Source: a bacterium
GTDB lineage: Bacteria > Sysuimicrobiota > Sysuimicrobiia > Sysuimicrobiales > Humicultoraceae
DNA: 11,439 nt
Assembly: GCA_041497675.1 (NCBI GenBank)
Contig: JBGQGY010000116.1
Location: 1-11,439, forward strand
Direction of reading: 5' to 3'
Part shown: piece after piece, positions 1,931-11,439 of the stretch
How the letters are laid out: each line of letters opens with the position of its first letter
Position numbering within the stretch: the first letter of the stretch is position 1
The notes under the pieces: generated by a model
What the model was told of the DNA's origin: nothing
The model's database searches: none
Seen by the model: only the letters and a program-made list of their open reading frames with translations
Position numbers and translations under genes: made by a program

Positions 1931-3226
1931 ATGTCGACCCCGGCCGCTCGCGCGCTCTCCGTCTTCCCCGCAGGCTCGCCGGGGGAGTACAATCTTCCGC
2001 CCGATCTCGTGACCGTGCTAGCCCGTGGGGAAGGCGCGGCCGTGTGGGATACGCAGGGGCGCCGGTTTCTTGACTTCACGATGGGGTGGGGATCGGTGCT
2101 GTTGGGCCACGCGCACCCCGCGGTCGTGGACGCCGTGCGCCGCCGCGCGGGCCTCGGATCGAACTTTGCGTACCTCTCAGAACCCGCGCTGGAACTGGCC
2201 GAAGAGATCGTGCGCGCCGTGCCCTGCGCTGAACGGGTGCGGTTTTGCGCGTCTGGGACCGAGGCGACCGCGTATGCCGTCCGGCTGGCGCGCGCCTACA
2301 CCGGGCGCGCGAAGGTGCTGAAGTTCGAAGGCGCCTATCACGGCGCGAACGAAATCGGTACCGCCAGCCTGTTTCCTCAGCGTCTCCTCGATTTTCCGGC
2401 GGTCGAGCCGACCTCGGCTGGGCTGTCTGCGGGATCGATGGCCGACATCCTGGTGGCGCCATTCAATGATCTGGACGCGACCAGACGGATCGCCGAGACA
2501 CACCGGCGTGCCCTGGCGGCCGTCGTCGTCGAGCCCCTGCACAGATGCACGTCACCACGCCCGGGTTTTCTCGAGGGGCTCCGGGCGCTCGCAACAGAGG
2601 TTGGCGCTTTGCTGATCTTCGACGAGGTGGTCACCGGATTTCGCCTGGCGTATGGAGGCGCGCAGGCATACTACGACGTCCGCCCGGACGTGGCTGCGCT
2701 GGGCAAAGCCATGGGCGGCGGGTATCCTCTCGGTGCGGTCGTGGGGAGATCCGACGTGCTCGATCTCGTCCGAGAGGATCGTCTCGGACAGGATCGTTAC
2801 GTGTGGTTCGCATCGAGCCTGGGCGGCAATCCGGTGTCCGCCGCCGCCGGGGTCGCGGCGCTCGGCGAGTTGCGGAAGCCCGGCGTCTATGCGCGCCTGT
2901 TTGCGCTCGGCGAGGCGCTCCGCGCCGGTCTCCGCGCGGCGCTGAAGGATGAAGGCATCACGGCGCAGGTGCAGGGCGAGGGACCCCTGGCCGCCGTGGT
3001 GTTCACCGGCACAGAGGTTGTGGACTATCGGACGGCCGCGACCGCCGACCGGCAGCGGGCGCGCGCCTTCCTGCTTGGACTCTTCCGCCGGGGCATCTTC
3101 TTGAATCCGATGTCGACGAAGTTGTATCTGTCGCTCGCGCACACCGCAGGGGACGTCGCGCGATTCCTGGACGTCGCGCGTGAGACGCTGCGGGAGGACG
3201 TCGGCCGTGGGCCCGAAAAGGAGTGA
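1931..3226 (+). CDS. PLP-dependent class III aminotransferase, glutamate-1-semialdehyde aminomutase (HemL)-like paralog, substrate unknown
   Basis: Motifs GEGAAVWDTQGRRFLD, GSVLLGHAHP, RFCASGTEA, KFEGAYHG, LLIFDEVVTGFR, LGKAMGGGYP (PLP lysine), SLGGNPVS. Start placed at ATG 1931, 7 nt after the upstream TAA; the ORF-track start at 1757 lies inside the previous gene. 431 aa. Confidence 0.9.
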   Translation: MSTPAARALSVFPAGSPGEYNLPPDLVTVLARGEGAAVWDTQGRRFLDFTMGWGSVLLGHAHPAVVDAVRRRAGLGSNFAYLSEPALELAEEIVRAVPCAERVRFCASGTEATAYAVRLARAYTGRAKVLKFEGAYHGANEIGTASLFPQRLLDFPAVEPTSAGLSAGSMADILVAPFNDLDATRRIAETHRRALAAVVVEPLHRCTSPRPGFLEGLRALATEVGALLIFDEVVTGFRLAYGGAQAYYDVRPDVAALGKAMGGGYPLGAVVGRSDVLDLVREDRLGQDRYVWFASSLGGNPVSAAAGVAALGELRKPGVYARLFALGEALRAGLRAALKDEGITAQVQGEGPLAAVVFTGTEVVDYRTAATADRQRARAFLLGLFRRGIFLNPMSTKLYLSLAHTAGDVARFLDVARETLREDVGRGPEKE

Positions 3227-3230
3227 GGCG

Positions 3231-3803
3231 ATGAAGCGAAGGTGTCTGTTCGCCGTGATCGTAGCGGGCTTGTTCGTGCTGCCGTCGGTCTCTTCGTACG
3301 CCGCACCGGCCATTCCCGGTCCTCTCGGGGGGCCTGAGATCGCGGTGGATGTGAATACCATGCTTGGCAAGAAGGCGCCAGCGTTCACATTGCGGGATAG
3401 CGACGGAAAGCAATACAAGGTTGTGCCTGGTCGCGGCCGCCCGCTGGTGGTCATCTCCCACATGGGGTATTACTGACAGCGGTGCGTCAGCCAGCTCGGC
3501 GAGCTGGAGAAGTCGGCGGCGGCGCTCAAGGTAATTGCCGAAGCGTATATAGTCAATCCGGACACCCCGGAGAACAGCAAGAGAGTTCGTGAGGCGGCCC
3601 GCCTATCAATCCCGATCCTGTTGGACCCAGGCTACGGCGTGGCGCGGATGTTTGACCTACCTGGCCAGGGTCGGCCTATGAACGGGCTGGTGGGGTTCGT
3701 CGTCGTAGACGGAAAAGGAATCATTCGCGTGCAGCGCGTCGATATCGACTTTGGCAGCCATGCAAGCCAGATCATCCAGATTGTCAACATCGTCTCGCGG
3801 TAA
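3231..3803 (+). CDS. Selenocysteine-containing AhpC/TSA-redoxin (peroxiredoxin-like, thioredoxin-fold) protein with signal peptide; UGA 3474-3476 = Sec82, motif U82-Q-R-C85
   Basis: ATG 3231 follows AAGGAGTGAGG. The track ORFs 3180-3476 and 3621-3803 share a frame, and the only stop between 3231 and TAA 3801-3803 is TGA 3474-3476. Joined product: MKRRCLFAVIVAGLFVLPSVSSYA-AP...GKKAPAFTLRDSDGKQY...PLVVISHMGYY-U-QRCVSQLGELEKSAAALK...YIVNPDTPENSKRV...IPILLDPGYGVARMFDL...FVVVDGKGIIR..., a continuous redoxin pattern of 190 aa. Confidence 0.88.
3491..3507 (+). promoter_or_regulatory. Putative bacterial SECIS element (apical stem-loop)
   Basis: Perfect 7-bp stem CCAGCTC (3491-3497)/GAGCTGG (3501-3507) with a GGC loop. 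The loop starts with G, 21 nt after the UGA, consistent with the bacterial SECIS model (G early in the apical loop, about 16-37 nt from UGA). Confidence 0.72.
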
Positions 3804-3855
3804 TTCCCGGTAGGCGCCGGGGAGAAGACGGAGCGCGGGGGTCGGATTCGCTTCT

Positions 3856-6306
3856 ATGAAAAGCGACGCACAGGCCGTCATTATTGGTGGCGGGATCGTC
3901 GGCTGTAGCATTGCCTACCACCTTGCCGACATGGGATGGAAGGACGTCGTGGTCGTCGAGAAAGGCGACCTCACCAGTGGGTCGACCTGGCATGCCGCCG
4001 GTCTGGTGGGACAGTTGCGCGCGTCGGCGAGTCTCACGCGCATCATGCGGTACAGCGCCGACCTGTACGCCCGTTTGAGCAAAGAGACCGGTCACGACAC
4101 GGAGTGGCGGCAGGTCGGCAGTATGCGTCTGGCCTCGACGCCGTTGCGGATGGAAGAAAACCTGCGACAGGCGGCGATGTGCCGGACGTTCGGTCTCCCC
4201 GTCGAGGTGTTGAGCCCGCGCGAGGCGGTAAAGTTGTTTCCGCTGATGACCGACCGCGACCTAGTTGGTGCCGTGTTCATGCCCACCGACGGTCGGGTCG
4301 ATCCCAGCGGCGCGACGTTTGCGCTGGCCAAAGGCGCCCGGACCCGCGGCGTGGAGTTCTACATGAATACGCTCGTCACCGGCATCACCGTCAAGAACGG
4401 TCGCGTCGATGCGGTCATCACCGATCAGGGGACTATTCGCACGCCCGTGGTCGTCAACGCGGCCGGCATGTGGGCCGATCAGGTCGGCAAGATGGTCGGC
4501 GTGACGCTGCCGCTGATTACAATGCAACATCAGTACCTGATCACCGAGCCGGTTGAGGGCATGCAGCGTGATCTGCCGATTCTGCGCGATCCAGATCTGC
4601 GCGTCTATCTCCGCGAAGAGGTGCTCGGCCTGCTGGTCGGAGGGTTCGAGGCCGATCCCAAGCCGTGGGCCCTCGACGGCGTCCCGCTGAACTTCAGCCA
4701 CCGCCTGCTGCAGTCGGACTGGCCGCTCTTCGAGCCGCTGGCGCGCAACGCGGCGGTGCGCGTGCCGGCCTTCGAGCACGCGGAGGTGACGCGCATTATC
4801 AACGGCCCGGAGGCGTTCACACCCGACGGCGAGTTCATGATCGGCGAAGTGCCGGGCGTGCGTGGGTTTTTCGTCGCGACCGGTTTCAACGCATACGGTA
4901 TTGCCGCCGGCGGTGGCGTGGGTAGAGTGCTGGCCGAGTGGATCGTCGAAGGCCAACCAAGCCTCGATCTCTGGCGGATGGACGTCCGGCGATGGGGGCC
5001 GCAGTACCAGCAGCAGACCTACACGCTGCCGCGGTCGATCGAGGCGCTCGCCCGCCGTTACGGCGCCGTGAGCCTGCCGTTTGAAGAATGGGACACCGGA
5101 CGCGGGTTCCGTCTCAGCCCATTCTATGATCGGCTGAGGGCGATGGGCGCGTCGCTCGGCGAGAAGGGTGGGTGGGAGCGGCCAAATTGGTTCGCGAGCA
5201 ACACCACTGATGGCGGCGCGAGTGCGACAGGCGCGGCCAACGGCTGGCGACCCGCCGGGTTCCTGCGTCACAACTGGACGCCGGCTATCGCGGTCGAGCA
5301 CATGGCCGCGCGCGAGGCCGCCGGTCTGTTCGACTTTACGTCGTTCAGCAAGATTGACGTCGAAGGCCCCGGGGCGCTGCGGGCGCTGCAGTGGATGACG
5401 GACAACGAGATGGACAAACCCGCCGGCAGCGTCACCTATACGCAGATGCTCAACTCGCGCGGCGGCATCGAGTGCGACCTGACCGTCACGCGGCTGGCGC
5501 CTGAGCGATTCTTCATCATTACGGGGAGCGCGTTTGGCGCGCACGACCTGGACTGGATCCGCCGCCACCTACCCGCCGATGGCTCCGCGGTCGCCCGCGA
5601 TGTCACGATGACCTTCGGGTGCATCGGCCTCTGGGGCCCGCAGGCGCGCGCGATCCTGGAAAAGGTCAGCGGCGATGACGTCTCGAACGCGGGCTTCCCC
5701 TACATGACCGGGCGGACGATCTCGATTGCCGGCATCCGCGTGCGGGCGCTGCGCGTGACGTATGTGGGTGAACTCGGCTGGGAGCTATACATGCCGGCGG
5801 AGCAAGGCCCCATCGTGTGGGACGCGCTGTGGGAGGCGGGGCGGCCTGCCGGCCTGCGCCCCGTTGGCTATCGCGCGGTCGAGTCGCTGCGCCTGGAGAA
5901 AGGCTACCGGTACTGGAGCGCGGACATCACGCCCGAGTACACGCCGCTCGAATCGGGGCAGGCGTTCTGCGTCAAGTTGGACAAAGGCGACTTTCAGGGT
6001 CGAGAGGCACTGGTGAAGCAGAAGACCGAAGGGCTCGCGCGGAAACTCTGCTGTCTGGTGCTGGCCGAGCCCACGGCCGTGGCGCTCGGAAATGAGCCGG
6101 TCTTCGAGGACGGGCGCGTCGTCAGCCGCGTGACGAGCGGTGGGTATGGCTACTTTGTCGGCGAGAGCATCGCCTACGCCTACCTACCGGTGAAGATGGC
6201 GACGATCGGCACGCAGGTCACGATCGAGGCGGACGGCGAACGAATCGGCGCGACAGTCCAGCGCGATCCGCGCCACGATCCCGGCAGCACCCGAATCAAG
6301 GCCTAG
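3856..6306 (+). CDS. Full-length FAD-dependent oxidoreductase/GcvT-domain protein (dimethylglycine/sarcosine dehydrogenase-like), 816 aa
   Basis: N-terminal Rossmann motif VIIGGGIVG, LTSGSTWHAAG (His used for covalent FAD in DMG oxidase/dehydrogenase), QHQY, INGPEAFTPDG, ATGFNAYGIAAGGGVG, GWERPNWF, and a C-terminal GcvT-like domain (RVTYVGELGWELY, SLRLEKGYRYW). Confidence 0.95.
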   Translation: MKSDAQAVIIGGGIVGCSIAYHLADMGWKDVVVVEKGDLTSGSTWHAAGLVGQLRASASLTRIMRYSADLYARLSKETGHDTEWRQVGSMRLASTPLRMEENLRQAAMCRTFGLPVEVLSPREAVKLFPLMTDRDLVGAVFMPTDGRVDPSGATFALAKGARTRGVEFYMNTLVTGITVKNGRVDAVITDQGTIRTPVVVNAAGMWADQVGKMVGVTLPLITMQHQYLITEPVEGMQRDLPILRDPDLRVYLREEVLGLLVGGFEADPKPWALDGVPLNFSHRLLQSDWPLFEPLARNAAVRVPAFEHAEVTRIINGPEAFTPDGEFMIGEVPGVRGFFVATGFNAYGIAAGGGVGRVLAEWIVEGQPSLDLWRMDVRRWGPQYQQQTYTLPRSIEALARRYGAVSLPFEEWDTGRGFRLSPFYDRLRAMGASLGEKGGWERPNWFASNTTDGGASATGAANGWRPAGFLRHNWTPAIAVEHMAAREAAGLFDFTSFSKIDVEGPGALRALQWMTDNEMDKPAGSVTYTQMLNSRGGIECDLTVTRLAPERFFIITGSAFGAHDLDWIRRHLPADGSAVARDVTMTFGCIGLWGPQARAILEKVSGDDVSNAGFPYMTGRTISIAGIRVRALRVTYVGELGWELYMPAEQGPIVWDALWEAGRPAGLRPVGYRAVESLRLEKGYRYWSADITPEYTPLESGQAFCVKLDKGDFQGREALVKQKTEGLARKLCCLVLAEPTAVALGNEPVFEDGRVVSRVTSGGYGYFVGESIAYAYLPVKMATIGTQVTIEADGERIGATVQRDPRHDPGSTRIKA

Positions 6307-7414
6307 AACTGGGCACGGGGACGTGCACGCCCATCTCTACGAGCACATCGCGGATCGCGGCCAGCGCGCCGCGCATGTCGGCTTCGGTCAGCCGGCCGAT
6401 GCAGCCGATGCGGAATGAGTCGATTTTCGTCAGCTTCCCCGGATAGATCAGGTAGCCGCGCCGCGCGAGCCTATCGTAGAAGTTCTTGAAATCGAAACGG
6501 GGATCGGCCGGCGTATGAAAGGTCACGATGATCGGCGCCTGCAACGCATCGGGTAGCAGCGGCCGGAACCCCATCGCTCGCATACCCTGGATCAGGATCT
6601 GGCAGTTCCGGCGGTAGCGCGCCCCCCGGCCGGCCACGCCGCCCTCGGCCGCGTGTTCGTCCAGCGCCCGATCGAACGCCGCCAGGACGTGCGTCGGCGG
6701 GGTGAACCGCCACTGTCCCGTCTTTTCCATGAACTGCGATTGCTCGCGCAGGTCGAGCACGACCGAATGGCTGTTGCCCTGACTGGCGTCGAGCGCCGCC
6801 GTGGCGCAGACGACGAACGTGGCGCCAGGGACGCCCTCGATGCACTTGTTGAACGACGAGGTCATGGCGTCGAACGCAATTTCGCGCGCATCCAGCGGCA
6901 GCGCGCCAAAGGCGCTCATGGCATCGATGAGCAACCGGCGCCCGGCCGCCGCCACCACTTGCGCCACCTCGGCCAGCGGATTGAGGACCCCTGACGTGGT
7001 CTCACAGTGGACGAAGGCCACGTGCGTGATTGCGGGTTCTGCCGCCAGTGCGGTTGCCACGCGCGCTGGGTCCACGGCCTCATCCTCGCCCCACTCCAGC
7101 GTCGCGTGCGCGCGGCCGATCACGCGGCATATGTGCGCCATCCGGTGGCCATAGGCGCCGTTGATCAGGATCAGCAGTTTGCCGTCGCGCGGCACCATCG
7201 TCCCGATCATCGCCTCGATCGCAAACGTCCCCGACCCCTGCAGGAGCACCGCGACGTGGGTTCCGTCACCGCCGGCCATGTCGACCAGACGCTGCTGCAC
7301 GCGTCGATTCATGGCGACAAACGCGGCGTCGCGTGATCCCCAATCGCGCAGCATAGCCTCCTTGGTGGTCCGCGAGGTCGTGAGCGGCCCGGGCGTCAGC
7401 AACAGGGGCTCCAT
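6296..7414 (-). CDS. phnW: 2-aminoethylphosphonate--pyruvate transaminase
   Basis: Motifs LLLTPGPLTTS, DWGSRD, LQGSGTFAIEA, NGAYG, VHCETTSG, DAMSAFG, NKCIEGVPG (PLP Lys), QWRFTPPTH, IYPGKLT, FRIGCIG. Lies directly after the AEP-type ABC transporter genes. Confidence 0.95.
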   Translation of the reverse strand: MEPLLLTPGPLTTSRTTKEAMLRDWGSRDAAFVAMNRRVQQRLVDMAGGDGTHVAVLLQGSGTFAIEAMIGTMVPRDGKLLILINGAYGHRMAHICRVIGRAHATLEWGEDEAVDPARVATALAAEPAITHVAFVHCETTSGVLNPLAEVAQVVAAAGRRLLIDAMSAFGALPLDAREIAFDAMTSSFNKCIEGVPGATFVVCATAALDASQGNSHSVVLDLREQSQFMEKTGQWRFTPPTHVLAAFDRALDEHAAEGGVAGRGARYRRNCQILIQGMRAMGFRPLLPDALQAPIIVTFHTPADPRFDFKNFYDRLARRGYLIYPGKLTKIDSFRIGCIGRLTEADMRGALAAIRDVLVEMGVHVPVPSSRP

Positions 7415-7417
7415 GTA

Positions 7418-9130
7418 CTACCTCCTACGCCAGGCCTGCGTCCGGCGGTCGAGGACGCGCGTGGCCGCCAGATGCACGACCCGCACCGCGGCGGATGTGA
7501 TGACGATCATCACGCCCATTGCCGCCGCGGCCGCCGTTTGCCCGGCATCATCCATGTTGACGATGGCGATCGACGCCAGCTTGGTGCTCGGGACATAGAT
7601 AAAGATGGCCGCCGAGACCGTCGTCATGGCATTGACGAACATGTACACGCTGATGCCGAGAATCGAGGGCAGACAGACCGGCACCGTCACCTTCCACAGC
7701 GTGCGATAGAAGGGAGCCTTCAGAGAAGCCGACACCGCCTCAAACTCGTTGTCCAGCTGCTTCAGCGCCGTGGTGGCCGTGAGGTGGCTGACCGTATAGT
7801 AGTGCGCAACGGTATTGATCACTAGGATGCCCAGCGTGCCGTACAGGAATCCCAACGGGTTCCTCGGGTCGTTGAAGAAGAAGATGTACCCCAGACCCAG
7901 CACCAGCCCCGGGACAGCCAGCGGCAGCATGGCAAAGAGCTGGACCAGCGCGCGGACAACGGGAAAGCCGCGGGTCTTCTCCAGGAGGTAGGCGCCGCTG
8001 AAGATGACCGCGGTCCCGATGACGGCCGTCCACGCGGCCATCCGGAGCGAGTTGAAGTACGACGACCATCCCTGGGCGTCGAAGTTCGTGAAGGCATAGT
8101 TTCGCAACGACATGCTGAGATCATACGGCCAGAACTTGATGAACGATCCCCAAGCCGCCACCGCCAGCAGGCTGACCACCGGCACGAGGATCACGGCACA
8201 GAAGGCGAAGAGCAACCAGTCGGTGAACCGGTTGGGCTTGGGCACGAATGGAACCGCCCGCGCGGTGAGCAGGGCCGTCTGGCGGCGCTGCACCAGGCGT
8301 TCCGCCGCGAAGGCCAGCACGGCGGGGGCGAGCAGCAACATGCCGACCACGGCCCCGATCGCGAAGTTCTGCTGGCCGATCACCTGTTTGTAGACGTCAG
8401 TGGCCAGGACGTTAAAACGCCCCCCGATGACCTTCGGGATCCCAAAATCAGTCATGACCAGCGTAAACACGACGAGGGCAGTGCCCATCACGCCGTACTT
8501 CACCCCCGGCAGCGTGACGGTGACGAAGATCCGTGGGGGAGAAGCCCCGAGTGCCTCAGCAGACTCATAGAGACGTGCGTCTGCCGTGCTCAGCGCCGTC
8601 ACCAGGATCATGAGCGCGTGAGGGAAGCAGTAGATCACCTCGCCGATCACAATCCCCAACGAGCCGTAAATGGAATTCCCCAAGAGCAGGCCCCGCACGA
8701 GACCCTGATTGCCGAACAGATAGATGAGCCCGATCGCCTGCAGCAGGGAAGGCGCCAGAATGGGGATGAGCGCCAGGCCGGCAAAGACGCTTTTCCCCCT
8801 CATGCCGCTCCTCGTGAGCGCATACGCGTATACGAACGTCCCAGGCACGACGATGGCCGTGGTCACCGCCGCGACGGAGATGCTGTTCCAGAATGAGACG
8901 AAGAGGCTGGGGGTCGAGAAATACGTGATGTAGTTCGCCAACCCGATAAAGGCGCCGTCGCGATTCTGGAAGCTCTTCGAGAGCAACGCCCAGAGCGGCA
9001 GCGCGAGGGTCACCGTCAGCCATAGGGCCAGGGTCACGAGCCCGCCGCGCGCGATCCATTCGTCACCGGCGAGTCTCTGCCGCACCACCGGGCCGCCGGA
9101 CACTGGGGCCCTTGAGACCGCCGTGGCCAT
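7418..9130 (-). CDS. phnU: Putative 2-aminoethylphosphonate ABC transporter permease with two fused transmembrane domains (PhnU2/FbpB-like), 570 aa
   Basis: Highly hydrophobic with two EAA loops (DARLYESAEALGA; DNEFEAVSASLKA), plus APSLLQAIGLIYLFGNQG and DFGIPKVIGG. Start placed at ATG 9130 (MATAVSR), 4 nt after the ATPase stop; the 9250 start overlaps the ATPase. Confidence 0.88.
   Translation of the reverse strand: MATAVSRAPVSGGPVVRQRLAGDEWIARGGLVTLALWLTVTLALPLWALLSKSFQNRDGAFIGLANYITYFSTPSLFVSFWNSISVAAVTTAIVVPGTFVYAYALTRSGMRGKSVFAGLALIPILAPSLLQAIGLIYLFGNQGLVRGLLLGNSIYGSLGIVIGEVIYCFPHALMILVTALSTADARLYESAEALGASPPRIFVTVTLPGVKYGVMGTALVVFTLVMTDFGIPKVIGGRFNVLATDVYKQVIGQQNFAIGAVVGMLLLAPAVLAFAAERLVQRRQTALLTARAVPFVPKPNRFTDWLLFAFCAVILVPVVSLLAVAAWGSFIKFWPYDLSMSLRNYAFTNFDAQGWSSYFNSLRMAAWTAVIGTAVIFSGAYLLEKTRGFPVVRALVQLFAMLPLAVPGLVLGLGYIFFFNDPRNPLGFLYGTLGILVINTVAHYYTVSHLTATTALKQLDNEFEAVSASLKAPFYRTLWKVTVPVCLPSILGISVYMFVNAMTTVSAAIFIYVPSTKLASIAIVNMDDAGQTAAAAAMGVMIVITSAAVRVVHLAATRVLDRRTQAWRRR
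7420..7426 (-). promoter_or_regulatory. Shine-Dalgarno site for phnW, embedded in the last codons of the permease
   Basis: Minus strand reads AGG AGG TAG TAC ATG: AGGAGG is formed by the terminal Arg-Arg codons of the permease, 6 nt before the phnW ATG. Confidence 0.8.
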
Positions 9131-9134
9131 CGGG

Positions 9135-10211
9135 CTAACCCGTCGGGAACACGCGGATGTGATCGGCCGGGAGTGACACGGTGATCGTCTTCCCGGGAAC
9201 CAGATCAAACTCGCGCTGCAGGTGGATGGCCACGTCGGCCCGGACGTCAACCGTTCCGACCGCGGCCGGCTTCAGGGTGGCGCGGTAGAACGATCCCAGG
9301 AAGTCCATCGCGACGATCTCGACCGGCATGAGGTTGGTCGTCGTCGCACCTCCGCTCCGGACGTCCACAGCCTCTGGTCGGAAGCACACCTTCACCGCGG
9401 CTCCCGGCGTGACGCCATCGGTCGGCGCGCACGTCAGTTCCGTCGTTCCTACCCTGACCCGGCGGGCGTCGACGAGCACGCCATCGAGGATGTTCATCTC
9501 CCCCACGAAGTCGGCGACGAAGGGCGTTGTCGGATTTCGATAGATCTCCATCGGCGTGCCGATCTGCTCGATGACGCCCTGGTTCATGACCACGATCCGG
9601 TCGGCCATGGTGAGTGCTTCCTCTTGATCATGGGTCACCAGGATCGTCGTGACGCCGAGCCGCTGCTGCAGGCCGCGAATCTCATGGCGCAGCCGGACGC
9701 GGAGACGGGCATCGAGGGCAGACAGCGGTTCGTCCAAGAGCAGCAGGCTGGGGGAGGGGGCGAGTGCGCGTGCCAGGGCCACGCGCTGCTGCATGCCACC
9801 CGAGAGCTGCGCCGGGTATTTCTGAGCCGCATCGGGCATGCCGATCAGCGCCAACAACTCGCCGACGCGCTGCCTGACGTTCTCACGCCGCATCTTCCGG
9901 CTGTGGAGGCCATACGCCACGTTGTCAAACACGCTCAGATTGGGGAACAGGGCGTAGGACTGGAAGACGATGCCGAAGTCGCGCCCCGCCGGGGGGAGCC
10001 CGCTGATATCATGGTCTTTCAGCGAGATGCGCCCGGTGGTCTGGATCTCCAGGCCCATGATAATCCGGAGCAGCGTCGTCTTCCCGCACCCGGATGGCCC
10101 CAGCAGGCAGACGAACTCGCCGTGGGAGATGTCGAACGACACGTCCATCAGTGCGTTGAAGCTCCCAAACCGCTTCCAGATATTGGCAACCTGCAGGTAG
10201 GGAGCACTCAT
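9135..10211 (-). CDS. phnT: Putative 2-aminoethylphosphonate ABC transporter ATP-binding protein (PhnT2-like)
   Basis: Walker A GPSGCGKT, Q-loop FQSYALFPNL, signature LSGGMQQR, Walker B LLLLDEPLSALD, H-loop VTHDQEEA, C-terminal TOBE-like region; context next to phnW. Confidence 0.9.
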   Translation of the reverse strand: MSAPYLQVANIWKRFGSFNALMDVSFDISHGEFVCLLGPSGCGKTTLLRIIMGLEIQTTGRISLKDHDISGLPPAGRDFGIVFQSYALFPNLSVFDNVAYGLHSRKMRRENVRQRVGELLALIGMPDAAQKYPAQLSGGMQQRVALARALAPSPSLLLLDEPLSALDARLRVRLRHEIRGLQQRLGVTTILVTHDQEEALTMADRIVVMNQGVIEQIGTPMEIYRNPTTPFVADFVGEMNILDGVLVDARRVRVGTTELTCAPTDGVTPGAAVKVCFRPEAVDVRSGGATTTNLMPVEIVAMDFLGSFYRATLKPAAVGTVDVRADVAIHLQREFDLVPGKTITVSLPADHIRVFPTG

Positions 10212-10287: not shown

Positions 10288-11358
10288 TCAGCGCGGGGCC
10301 GATTTCGCGTCGTAGCGCTTTGCCCACTCCTGGAGGATGCGGTCCCGATTCTTCGCCATCCACGCGAAGTCGTTCTTGAACATCTGTTTCTCAGCGTTCG
10401 GTGGGTAGAAAGGCGGCACATTGGTCAGGCCGGGCAAGGCCACGATCGCGTACGACGTCCGGTCCGGCCCGCCCACGCCGTTGTATATCTCGTTGGCCTT
10501 GCGGCTGACCGCAAAGTCCGCCAGGCGCTGCGCCGCCGCCAGGTTGCGCGTCCCGCGGATGATGCCGGTCGCCTCCATGTCCCAGCCGGCGCCTTCCTTC
10601 GGAATGATGACTTCAATTGGCGCCCCCTGCTGCTTGAGGAGAGCGCCGCGCCCGTCGAACCCGATGCCCATCGCGAACTCGCCCTGCGCCGCCCGGACGC
10701 ACGGTGCTGAGCCGGAGTGGAGGTAGATGCCGATGTTCTCGTGGATCTTGTCCATAAACGCCCAACCCTTCTGCTCACCCATCATCTGCAGCCACGCTGC
10801 GATCGTGAGATAGCCGGTACCGGACGATGCCGGGTTGGGCATCACGACCCGCCCTTTGTAGGCGGGGCTGAGCAGGTCTTGCCAGGAGAAGGGGGCACGC
10901 AGCCCCCGCTTCTTCGCTTCCACGGTGTTGTAGCAGATCACAGACAGGAAGGCGTCCATGCCTGTCCACGTCATGGGGTTCTTGGTATCACGAAAGGCGG
11001 GTTTGAGCGCGTCGGCGCCTCGAGGTGTGTACGGCTGGAGCAAGTTCTGTTCATCGAAGATCAGCAGGCTGGTGACGGCCAGGCCCCAGATGGCATCGGC
11101 GCGCGGGTTTGCCCTCTCGGCGAGGATGCGTGCCGTGATAACCCCGGTCGAGTCACGCACCCAGTCGATGATGACCCCGGGGGTGTCCGCCTCGAACGAC
11201 GACTTGAAATAGCCCAACTGGTCATTCTCAATCGCGGTGTAGACGGTCAGTCGCGTCGGTGCCTGAGCGATAGCCTGGGGAGCCAAACCTATGGCGAGGA
11301 TCACAATGGCCACCAGGGCCACTGCCAACTTGCCTGTCATTTTCACGCCTTGCGGCAT
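10288..11358 (-). CDS. phnS: Putative 2-aminoethylphosphonate ABC transporter substrate-binding protein (PhnS2/AepX-type), 356 aa
   Basis: Signal peptide (KLAVALVAIVILAIGLAPQAIA-Q) and motifs LTVYTAIE, WVRDSTGVITARILAE, ADAIWGLAVTSL, MPNPASSGTG, YLHSGSAPC, GWDMEA, NRDRILQEW. ATG 11358 is preceded by GAGGGGG; ATG 11340 is an alternative start. Confidence 0.9.
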   Translation of the reverse strand: MPQGVKMTGKLAVALVAIVILAIGLAPQAIAQAPTRLTVYTAIENDQLGYFKSSFEADTPGVIIDWVRDSTGVITARILAERANPRADAIWGLAVTSLLIFDEQNLLQPYTPRGADALKPAFRDTKNPMTWTGMDAFLSVICYNTVEAKKRGLRAPFSWQDLLSPAYKGRVVMPNPASSGTGYLTIAAWLQMMGEQKGWAFMDKIHENIGIYLHSGSAPCVRAAQGEFAMGIGFDGRGALLKQQGAPIEVIIPKEGAGWDMEATGIIRGTRNLAAAQRLADFAVSRKANEIYNGVGGPDRTSYAIVALPGLTNVPPFYPPNAEKQMFKNDFAWMAKNRDRILQEWAKRYDAKSAPR

Positions 11359-11439
11359 AGCGCACCCCCTCATGTGGGCGTTCCGCGCAGTATTTCCCCG
11401 GCCGTGCCCCAAACCCTTGCTACAGCCGCATCCGGACGC

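Follow-up and report, generated by a model that had tools for sequence, protein, structure and literature searches.

The 11,439-nt stretch of Sysuimicrobiota DNA analysed here (contig JBGQGY010000116.1 of assembly GCA_041497675.1, the whole of which is called the window) almost certainly carries a selenoprotein gene at positions 3231–3803 of the forward strand, as judged from comparison of sequences. The gene has 190 codons and a TAA stop (3801–3803), and its codon 82 is an in-frame UGA (3474–3476) predicted to be read as selenocysteine (Sec). The product is probably an extracytoplasmic oxidoreductase with a UxxC active site, and the evidence leans slightly towards a copper-linked job for its family. 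Taken as a whole, the explanation favoured on balance is a UxxC selenoprotein oxidoreductase of the cell envelope that belongs to a copper-linked family. It is more tentative, with the case for it falling a little short of the case against, that HMG-x-x-U-x-R-C marks a distinct, obligately Sec-containing envelope redox or copper family, placed in copper-homeostasis modules of CSP1-3/Sysuimicrobiota and probably beyond. The initial annotation of the window had proposed an exported Sec redoxin, and this overall reading is supported by the conserved UGA, by the Cys-containing relatives and by the Sec machinery.

The sole internal stop of the frame 3231–3803 is the TGA of codon 82, and translation places it in the context ...PLVVISHMGYY-U-QRCVSQLGELEK..., with H-M-G-Y-Y-U-Q-R-C as the motif. 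Calling of open reading frames (ORFs) with translation table 11 breaks the frame into 3180/3231–3476 and 3621–3803, the first start codon of the post-TGA half being found only at 3621. The protein read through the TGA matched the Pfam families AhpC-TSA (E 2.1e-16, 60.4 bits, cutoff 26) and Redoxin (1.1e-9), and the Pfam match covers residues 46–167, on both sides of the TGA. The single 190-codon frame with one TGA, which had been joined from two ORF fragments, is borne out by the translation and by this match across the TGA, and goes well beyond what chance would give.

A protein search returned 29 matches, all of 104–114 residues, which are either C-terminal halves starting just after x-R-C or N-terminal halves ending in ...HMGxx. 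An exhaustive search of representative proteins gave 797 matches at E up to 1e-3. Among 178 proteins collected, at least 39 end exactly at 'HMGxx', at least 32 start at residues after the second Cys, and full-length Cys-containing relatives are few. The suspicion that annotation pipelines miscall the gene proved right, as protein collections hold at least these 39 N-terminal and 32 C-terminal halves.

In DNA, TGA occupies the aligned codon in all seven true homologues from eight genome loci (the eighth, L018, was left out of the count as it matches the signal peptide only) and in 15/15 metagenome loci that span the site. There are 22 metagenome loci in all, and the other seven are truncated contigs or C-terminal remnants that stop short of it. 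The retrieval pattern, [RK]VQRVDID, is independent of codon 82. Metagenome contigs L034, L036, L037 and L038 hold the C-terminal redoxin part only, fused to unrelated upstream sequence, and are possible remnants or rearranged copies. In a sample of 94 genomes of the phylum, 18 had a match at E up to 1e-20, and each of the 17 full-length copies has exactly one TGA; these counts include the unpublished genomes G024 and G031 (without them, 16 carriers among 92 genomes and 15 full-length copies) and overlap with the genome-locus counts, some of the genomes being those behind L011–L017. After removal of identical stretches, 20 unique DNA sequences remained, with TGA in 20/20 and 48–72 % protein identity to the window protein. 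No Cys form at U82 was present among the copies of the clade seen. The alignment of eight full-length sequences has 49 invariant columns, with both halves conserved, and H77, M78, G79, U82, R84 and C85 are all among the invariant residues. Conservation of the TGA across species excludes a private mutation of the window sequence.

Twelve distant full-length relatives (24–41 % identity), hand-picked among 150 listed, have Cys at the position of U82 in ten cases and at that of C85 in all 12. The remaining two have Arg and Thr at U82, and the one with Thr is a PxxxTxxC peroxiredoxin. The earlier placing of the TGA at the first Cys of a CxxC motif agrees with this distribution, in which Trp never occurs at the position.

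The stretch is present in 20 public runs, seven of them possibly its source, and contigs of four others were compared over 3150–3850. The compared contigs of other runs show no difference at 3474–3476. The site is bridged by contigs of X8 (whole stretch, two differences), X9 and three of X14, so the TGA is unchanged in three runs. Strain variants are found among the X14 contigs (13 and 18 differences), and one of these differences turns the loop of the hairpin described below from GGC into GUG and leaves the stem intact. A base-call error, named earlier as a possible flaw, is excluded because independently assembled contigs keep the TGA. RNA data were absent among the public runs listed for this stretch.

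The genome of the window is 98.6 % complete and has the whole set of genes for Sec insertion, selA, selB, tRNA-Sec and selD, which had been named as a check on the prediction. SelA (462 bits) is coded at C24:23937–25028, the SelB winged-helix domain is on the same contig, and a single tRNA-Sec(tca) adjoins selA and selB at C24:29512–29607; the three form a cluster at G000:C24:23937–29607. SelD (394 bits; G000:C39:15011–15934, forward strand, locus L006) has an in-frame TGA of its own. Eight carrier genomes were examined for Sec markers, the window's and seven others, and at least one strong marker was identified in seven of the eight. SelA was found in carriers G003 and G004, TGA-containing SelD in G001, G002, G006 and G007, tRNA-Sec at 66 bits or more in G002, G006 and G007, and SelB in G006 and G007.

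Reassignment of TGA as in genetic codes 4 and 25 was considered and ruled out, because neighbouring genes and two orthologues use TGA as an ordinary stop: the aminotransferase gene upstream, on the same strand and tightly packed, ends with TGA at 3224–3226, 4 nt from the ATG of the selenoprotein gene, and the orthologues in L013 and L016 end in TGA as their own stop. A second, unrelated redoxin ORF with one in-frame TGA is found at about G000:C19:26250–26609 (reverse strand, L042). It has the sequence ...W-U-P-Y-C... and a long C-terminal extension, and with its TGA at a classical WCxxC-type position it probably codes for another UxxC selenoprotein. The selenoproteome of the genome would include the window protein, the Sec-containing SelD and this second UxxC redoxin candidate.

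A bacterial selenocysteine insertion sequence (SECIS) is recognised as a short stem-loop that has a G in the loop and lies no more than a few tens of nucleotides from the UGA. A candidate hairpin lies at 3491–3507 of the forward strand, with a 7-bp stem CCAGCUC/GAGCUGG and the loop GGC. In 20/20 unique sequences, the form CCAGCUC-GNN-GAGCUGG begins 14 nt downstream of the UGA, within the codons for S-Q-L-G-E-L. None of its four stem codons (Gln CAG, Leu CUC, Glu GAG and Leu CUG) varies among the 20 sequences, and only 2/36 of the other degenerate codons for invariant residues in the same 113-codon stretch are likewise monomorphic (4/4 versus 2/36, Fisher one-sided p = 1.6e-4). The loop codon varies (GGC, GGU, GGG, GUG), and its first base is always G. 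At an eighth, flanking pair, 12 distinct rows have G-C, two have U-A and three are unpaired, including the window, where positions 3490/3508 are G.A. Pairing at this eighth position reaches 97.8 % of cells, compared with 25–49 % when the partner is slid. The signal is thus that of a short conserved hairpin and not of overall fold stability. Review excerpts describe the bacterial SECIS as a stem-loop immediately 3' of the UGA. The hairpin is a probable SECIS, with predicted binding of SelB.

The structure predicted by AlphaFold from a 26-row alignment has a mean predicted local distance difference test score (pLDDT) of 92 and a predicted template modelling score of 0.84. The thioredoxin/peroxiredoxin-fold domain, at about residues 38–190 (3342–3800, forward strand), has pLDDT of 97–98, and its assignment rests on the Pfam matches to AhpC-TSA and Redoxin, on the model and on structure matches. 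In the model, strand 72–76 precedes residue 82 and helix 83–93 follows it, in agreement with the earlier placing of the TGA between a hydrophobic strand and a helix. The structure search gave Bcp1 (3drn) with Z 18.5 (root-mean-square deviation (rmsd) 2.2, 145 aligned), ResA with Z 17.1 and TlpA with 13.4; ResA, DsbE, SdbA and CcmG are in the range of Z 15–17. The Sco structure 4hde had Z 11.7 (rmsd 3.6, 145 aligned) and rank 50 in a wide structural search. Foldseek matched 3hjp at 1.4e-10, and the best sequence profile was 2cx3 with E 4e-8.

The redox/metal motif H77-M78-G79-x-x-U82-x-R84-C85, defined by residues invariant in the alignment, is coded at 3459–3485 (forward strand), and U82-Q-R-C85 is at the N-terminus of helix 83–93. 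In the HMMER alignment to the bacterioferritin comigratory protein (BCP) structure 2cx3, Met78 stands at the Pro position, Sec82 at Thr/Ser and Cys85 at the peroxidatic Cys. P0145, a true PxxxTxxC protein, aligns in the same way, with U82 at Thr/Ser and C85 at the peroxidatic Cys. In this single alignment, a hydrophobic residue is opposite the catalytic Arg of 2cx3. As read from these alignments, the chemistry is of thioredoxin (Trx)-type UxxC, with the nucleophile first, and not peroxiredoxin-type, because U82 aligns with Thr/Ser and C85 with the peroxidatic Cys of PxxxT/SxxC. The initial annotation had likened the protein to AhpC/TSA peroxiredoxin-like selenoproteins; the domain and the Sec position hold, but the peroxiredoxin chemistry does not, since UxxC is Trx-type. 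A distal His, H177, 95 residues after U82, is also invariant. His77 is specific to the clade with Sec, and among the Cys relatives this place is taken by Y, H, D or others.

Residues 1–24 (3231–3302, forward strand) form a putative export signal with a basic MKRR, a hydrophobic core and a likely cleavage site SYA/A. The signal of the window protein looks cleavable, and many relatives look as if they had signal anchors. All 15 full-length members have a basic N-terminus (net charge +1 to +7) and, after it, 18–31 uncharged hydrophobic residues in a row. The export signal suggested earlier is made plausible by this pattern of charge and hydrophobicity, the cleavage site itself being a prediction only. 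The N-terminal pattern points to an extracytoplasmic position of the domain.

Near-identical loci of the family were grouped by eye into 13 non-redundant loci, and copper-linked genes are present at 12 of them. Copper-specific domains occur at ten of these 12, and a P-type ATPase alone at two (the L013 and L015 groups). A CopC-CopD fusion of about 800 residues is coded directly upstream of the selenoprotein gene in L011, L012, L017, L019, L031 and L032, and the upstream C-terminal peptide in L025 is the same as that of the fusion. A multicopper oxidase is coded downstream in L011, L012, L014 and L024, a cupredoxin-like ORF is in L025, and a P-type ATPase is in the L013 group, the L015 group, L017 and L032 (with an HMA domain). 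L016 has a YHS domain, and in L019 a DsbD_N protein gene adjoins the CopCD and selenoprotein genes.

The fusions themselves were located at L011:1412–3955, L017:1434–3824, L031:440–2833, L032:436–2832 and L019:409–2832. Their C-terminal approximately 250–300 residues have no Pfam match, and the selenoprotein gene begins just after the end of their conserved C-terminal peptide. In tandem with the Sec gene, TlpA-like redoxins of Cys type (AhpC-TSA, Redoxin, Thioredoxin_8) are found at L015:2293–2916 and 3309–3914, L026:881–1462, L028:328–900 and L020:3045–3653, and some clusters thus have two or three neighbouring envelope redoxins.

In the mechanism proposed, UGA82 would be decoded as Sec by SelB and tRNA-Sec, directed by the hairpin 14 nt downstream. 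The N-terminal signal peptide or anchor would place the thioredoxin-fold domain outside the cytoplasm, where the selenolate at the N-terminus of helix 83–93 would be the attacking nucleophile and Cys85 the resolving residue. The protein may work as a selenol/thiol-disulfide oxidoreductase of the TlpA/ResA/ScsD kind, most likely as a reductase. Its reduced state would be kept by a membrane conduit of CcdA/DsbD type, probably the single CcdA/DsbD_TM conduit of the genome (G000:C8:6137–6796, 70.8 bits), as a presumed partner. For the family, a role in copper homeostasis is suggested, which could consist in repairing or preventing copper-catalysed oxidation of thiols in envelope and copper-handling proteins, or, alternatively, in handling Cu(I)/Cu(II) directly.

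Several observations weigh against this explanation or parts of it. The copy in the window is outside any copper cluster: a class-III aminotransferase gene ends 4 nt upstream of it and a DAO/GCV_T-type dehydrogenase gene starts 52 nt downstream, and the five CopD loci of the genome are on other contigs. The same-genus locus L049 (G028:C133), compared at 2401–2955 with the window at 3200–3855, has the same flanks and a different small exported protein between them. As for enzyme type, structure does not part a reductase from a peroxidase (Bcp1 Z 18.5, ResA Z 17.1). The NCBIfam ResA model scored 21.4 bits against a cutoff of 170, and none of the models ResA, TlpA and DsbE came near its cutoff. 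Regarding Sec insertion, a search of carrier G005 gave no convincing selA, selB or selD. SelA was found in 14 of the 18 carriers of the phylum, the four without it being 68–88 % complete, and this co-occurrence carries no information, since 76 of the 94 phylum genomes have SelA anyway. Only one of the eight hairpin pairs varies at all, which limits covariation to that pair, and it probably reflects one event because L017 and L019 are related. The 67-nt fold after the UGA is no more stable than that of shuffled sequences (z = 0.25), and the frozen codons CAG, CUC, GAG and CUG are also those preferred in a GC-rich genome. An Rfam scan of 3200–3850 gave no match at E up to 10, which says little because bacterial SECIS elements are poorly covered there.

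The small exported protein of L049 has a weak YbjN-like match (E 0.0085), and the slot between the aminotransferase and dehydrogenase genes is one that behaves like a variable cassette. The copy in the window looks relocated, yet it has kept every invariant residue and the hairpin. No paralogue was found in a copper cluster of the window's genome, which has this one copy and the unrelated TGA-containing redoxin ORF on C19. P0017 is an N-terminal half 81 % identical to the window protein, and the same called ORF starts with a short peptide like the N-terminus of a DAO-type dehydrogenase, a layout hinting that this junction was rearranged in a close relative.

In the window, the selenoprotein gene is preceded by a Shine-Dalgarno-like AAGGAG (3218–3223, forward strand), 7 nt before the ATG at 3231, which as read from the sequence would serve as its ribosome-binding site. 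Two paralogous DAO-FAO_M-GCV_T-GCV_T_C genes resembling dimethylglycine/sarcosine dehydrogenases (25–1923 and 3856–6306, forward strand) lie on either side of the aminotransferase and selenoprotein genes. Farther on are a class-V aminotransferase gene (6296–7414, reverse strand) and then an ABC importer coded on the reverse strand, which is composed of a fused double permease (7418–9250), an ATPase (9135–10211) and an SBP_bac_6 binding protein (10288–11412).

Of the rival explanations, the one that survives best keeps the exported selenoprotein but makes it a Sco-like metallochaperone or a Cu(I) buffer and no disulfide reductase. Sec82, Cys85, His77, Met78 and possibly His177 would then be the copper ligands, and copper would move to or from CopC-CopD, the multicopper oxidase or the P-type ATPase. 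This is unlikely, even if H77, M78, U82, C85 and the distal H177 are invariant and typical soft-metal ligands, His77 is confined to the Sec clade, and the copper neighbourhoods are tight and recurrent. In one source, a relative's N-terminal fragment bears the name 'cytochrome oxidase Cu insertion factor (SCO1/SenC/PrrC family)', yet there was no match to Pfam SCO1-SenC at E up to 10, and the Z of 11.7 for Sco 4hde contrasts with 17–18.5 for peroxiredoxin and ResA structures. The spacing is UxxC and not the CxxxC of the Sco motif. Binding of Cu(I) through CxxC, described for ScsD and ScsC in excerpts of the literature, fits a chaperone as well.

Still less probable is a Sec-dependent BCP/PrxQ-type peroxidase that would clear copper-generated peroxides from the envelope. 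BCP/PrxQ/AhpE proteins are the best profile and structure matches (2cx3, E 4e-8; 3hjp, 1.4e-10; 3drn, Z 18.5) and the Pfam family is AhpC-TSA, but the PxxxT/SxxC pattern is absent: Met78 is at its Pro, Sec82 at its Thr/Ser, and only C85 is at the peroxidatic Cys. In the alignment to 2cx3, moreover, the residue opposite the catalytic Arg region is not Arg. A cell-envelope peroxiredoxin reduced by ScsB is described in the literature (PMC3322552), but Sec-peroxiredoxins in review tables (PMC9312934, PMC13188914) are listed as TxxU, with Sec at the peroxidatic position.

That the gene codes for no selenoprotein, its TGA being a terminator (two genes or a pseudogene), a sequencing error or a codon for another amino acid, is hardly credible: gene callers do split the frame in this way, the 67-nt downstream fold is not unusually stable and Rfam has no SECIS match, but the TGA is at the same codon in 20/20 sequences with strong conservation on both sides and is kept in independently assembled contigs of other runs, the post-TGA half lacks a start codon until 3621, distant relatives have Cys in this column, TGA is an ordinary stop nearby (3224–3226) and in the L013 and L016 orthologues, and the Sec machinery is complete.

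Every copy of the family seen in public protein collections has been cut into two pieces, under the names 'peroxiredoxin', 'redoxin domain-containing protein' or 'hypothetical'. Counts of selenoproteins in the lineage are therefore too low, and the family is not recovered by any NCBIfam model. The recurrent placement beside genes for CopC-CopD, multicopper oxidase and copper ATPase suggests the use of selenium in copper defence of the envelope, a job done elsewhere by the Cys-based Scs and TlpA systems. If the HMG-x-x-U-x-R-C proteins do form a distinct, obligately Sec-containing family within copper-homeostasis modules, selenium use would be tied directly, in function, to defence against copper outside the cytoplasm. 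Sec might then have been selected for a selenolate that stays reactive, can be re-reduced and is a tight ligand of Cu(I) where the compartment is oxidising and rich in copper, and the family would have been overlooked because gene callers cut every member in two.

Among the systems already listed, the class 'Prx-like thiol:disulfide oxidoreductase' (PF00578, UxxC/UxxU; example WP_010940744.1) is tabulated in the reviews PMC9312934 and PMC13188914. It has the same Pfam domain, Sec position and UxxC motif, and both that class and the window protein are bioinformatic predictions only. By the rule of domain and Sec motif, the window protein is a member of the listed class, matched to WP_010940744.1 by description only. 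The clade differs in its signature H-M-G-x-x-U-x-R-C, unlike the W-C/U-P-x-C of the C19 candidate in the same genome, and also in being, by prediction, exported or anchored, exclusively Sec-containing in the copies seen, and placed in copper clusters. A 'Redoxin family protein, PF08534, UxxC' (HEU0032618.1 / MBA3499694.1) is listed separately in the same excerpts. The suggestion of an undescribed subfamily holds only in part: the class of domain and motif is already in reviews, but no curated NCBIfam model covers the clade, which may also stand already in supplementary tables of large selenoproteome surveys.

Other thioredoxin-fold (seleno)proteins are covered by the NCBIfam models SelL-related (NF040769), TUGYCR (NF053656), WAxxUGC (NF041054) and PrxU (NF040737), and the window protein matched none of these at E up to 0.01. 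The SelL-related model gave weak matches in 21 of the 26 alignment members (best E 1.2e-13). The best E-values of members against NCBIfam selenoprotein redoxin models are about 1e-13 to 1e-14, far from the cutoffs of 120–300 bits. No report linking Sec to copper through CopCD or multicopper oxidase was found in the literature search, where the query 'CopD' was swamped by the lung disease COPD. No report of selenoproteins in CSP1-3/Sysuimicrobiota was found either, and PMC11604079 has no words starting with 'selen' or 'copper'.

BCP/PrxQ/AhpE proteins (3drn, 3hjp, 2cx3, 5id2) are the best fold and profile matches and share AhpC-TSA with the window protein, which differs from them in lacking PxxxT/SxxC and in having Sec at the Thr/Ser position. 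Sco1/SenC proteins resemble it in the thioredoxin fold, the predicted membrane tether and extracytoplasmic position, the genetic link to copper and the two thiol-type ligands with a distal His (which here would be U82, C85 and H177), and differ by the missing PF02630 match (E up to 10) and the lower Z of 11.7.

ScsD of Salmonella is described in excerpts as copper-induced, with an inner-membrane anchor, supplied by ScsB and able to bind Cu(I) (10.64898/2026.05.22.727170), and as the partner of the DsbD-like ScsB (10.64898/2026.05.22.727170, PMC10907172). The window family is like ScsD, TlpA, ResA and CcmG in having a predicted N-terminal anchor and a thioredoxin-fold domain that would face outward, with a dithiol-type x-x motif at the N-terminus of a helix. 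The copper-linked genetics and the availability of a DsbD_N or CcdA-type partner are further points of likeness. The NCBIfam models TlpA and DsbE match only two and one of the 26 alignment members, respectively, and weakly. The family is set apart from these proteins by a nucleophile that is predicted to be Sec and not Cys, by the lack of Trp before the active site, and by neighbours that are CopC-CopD, multicopper oxidase and P-type ATPase genes and not scsABC or cytochrome-maturation genes.

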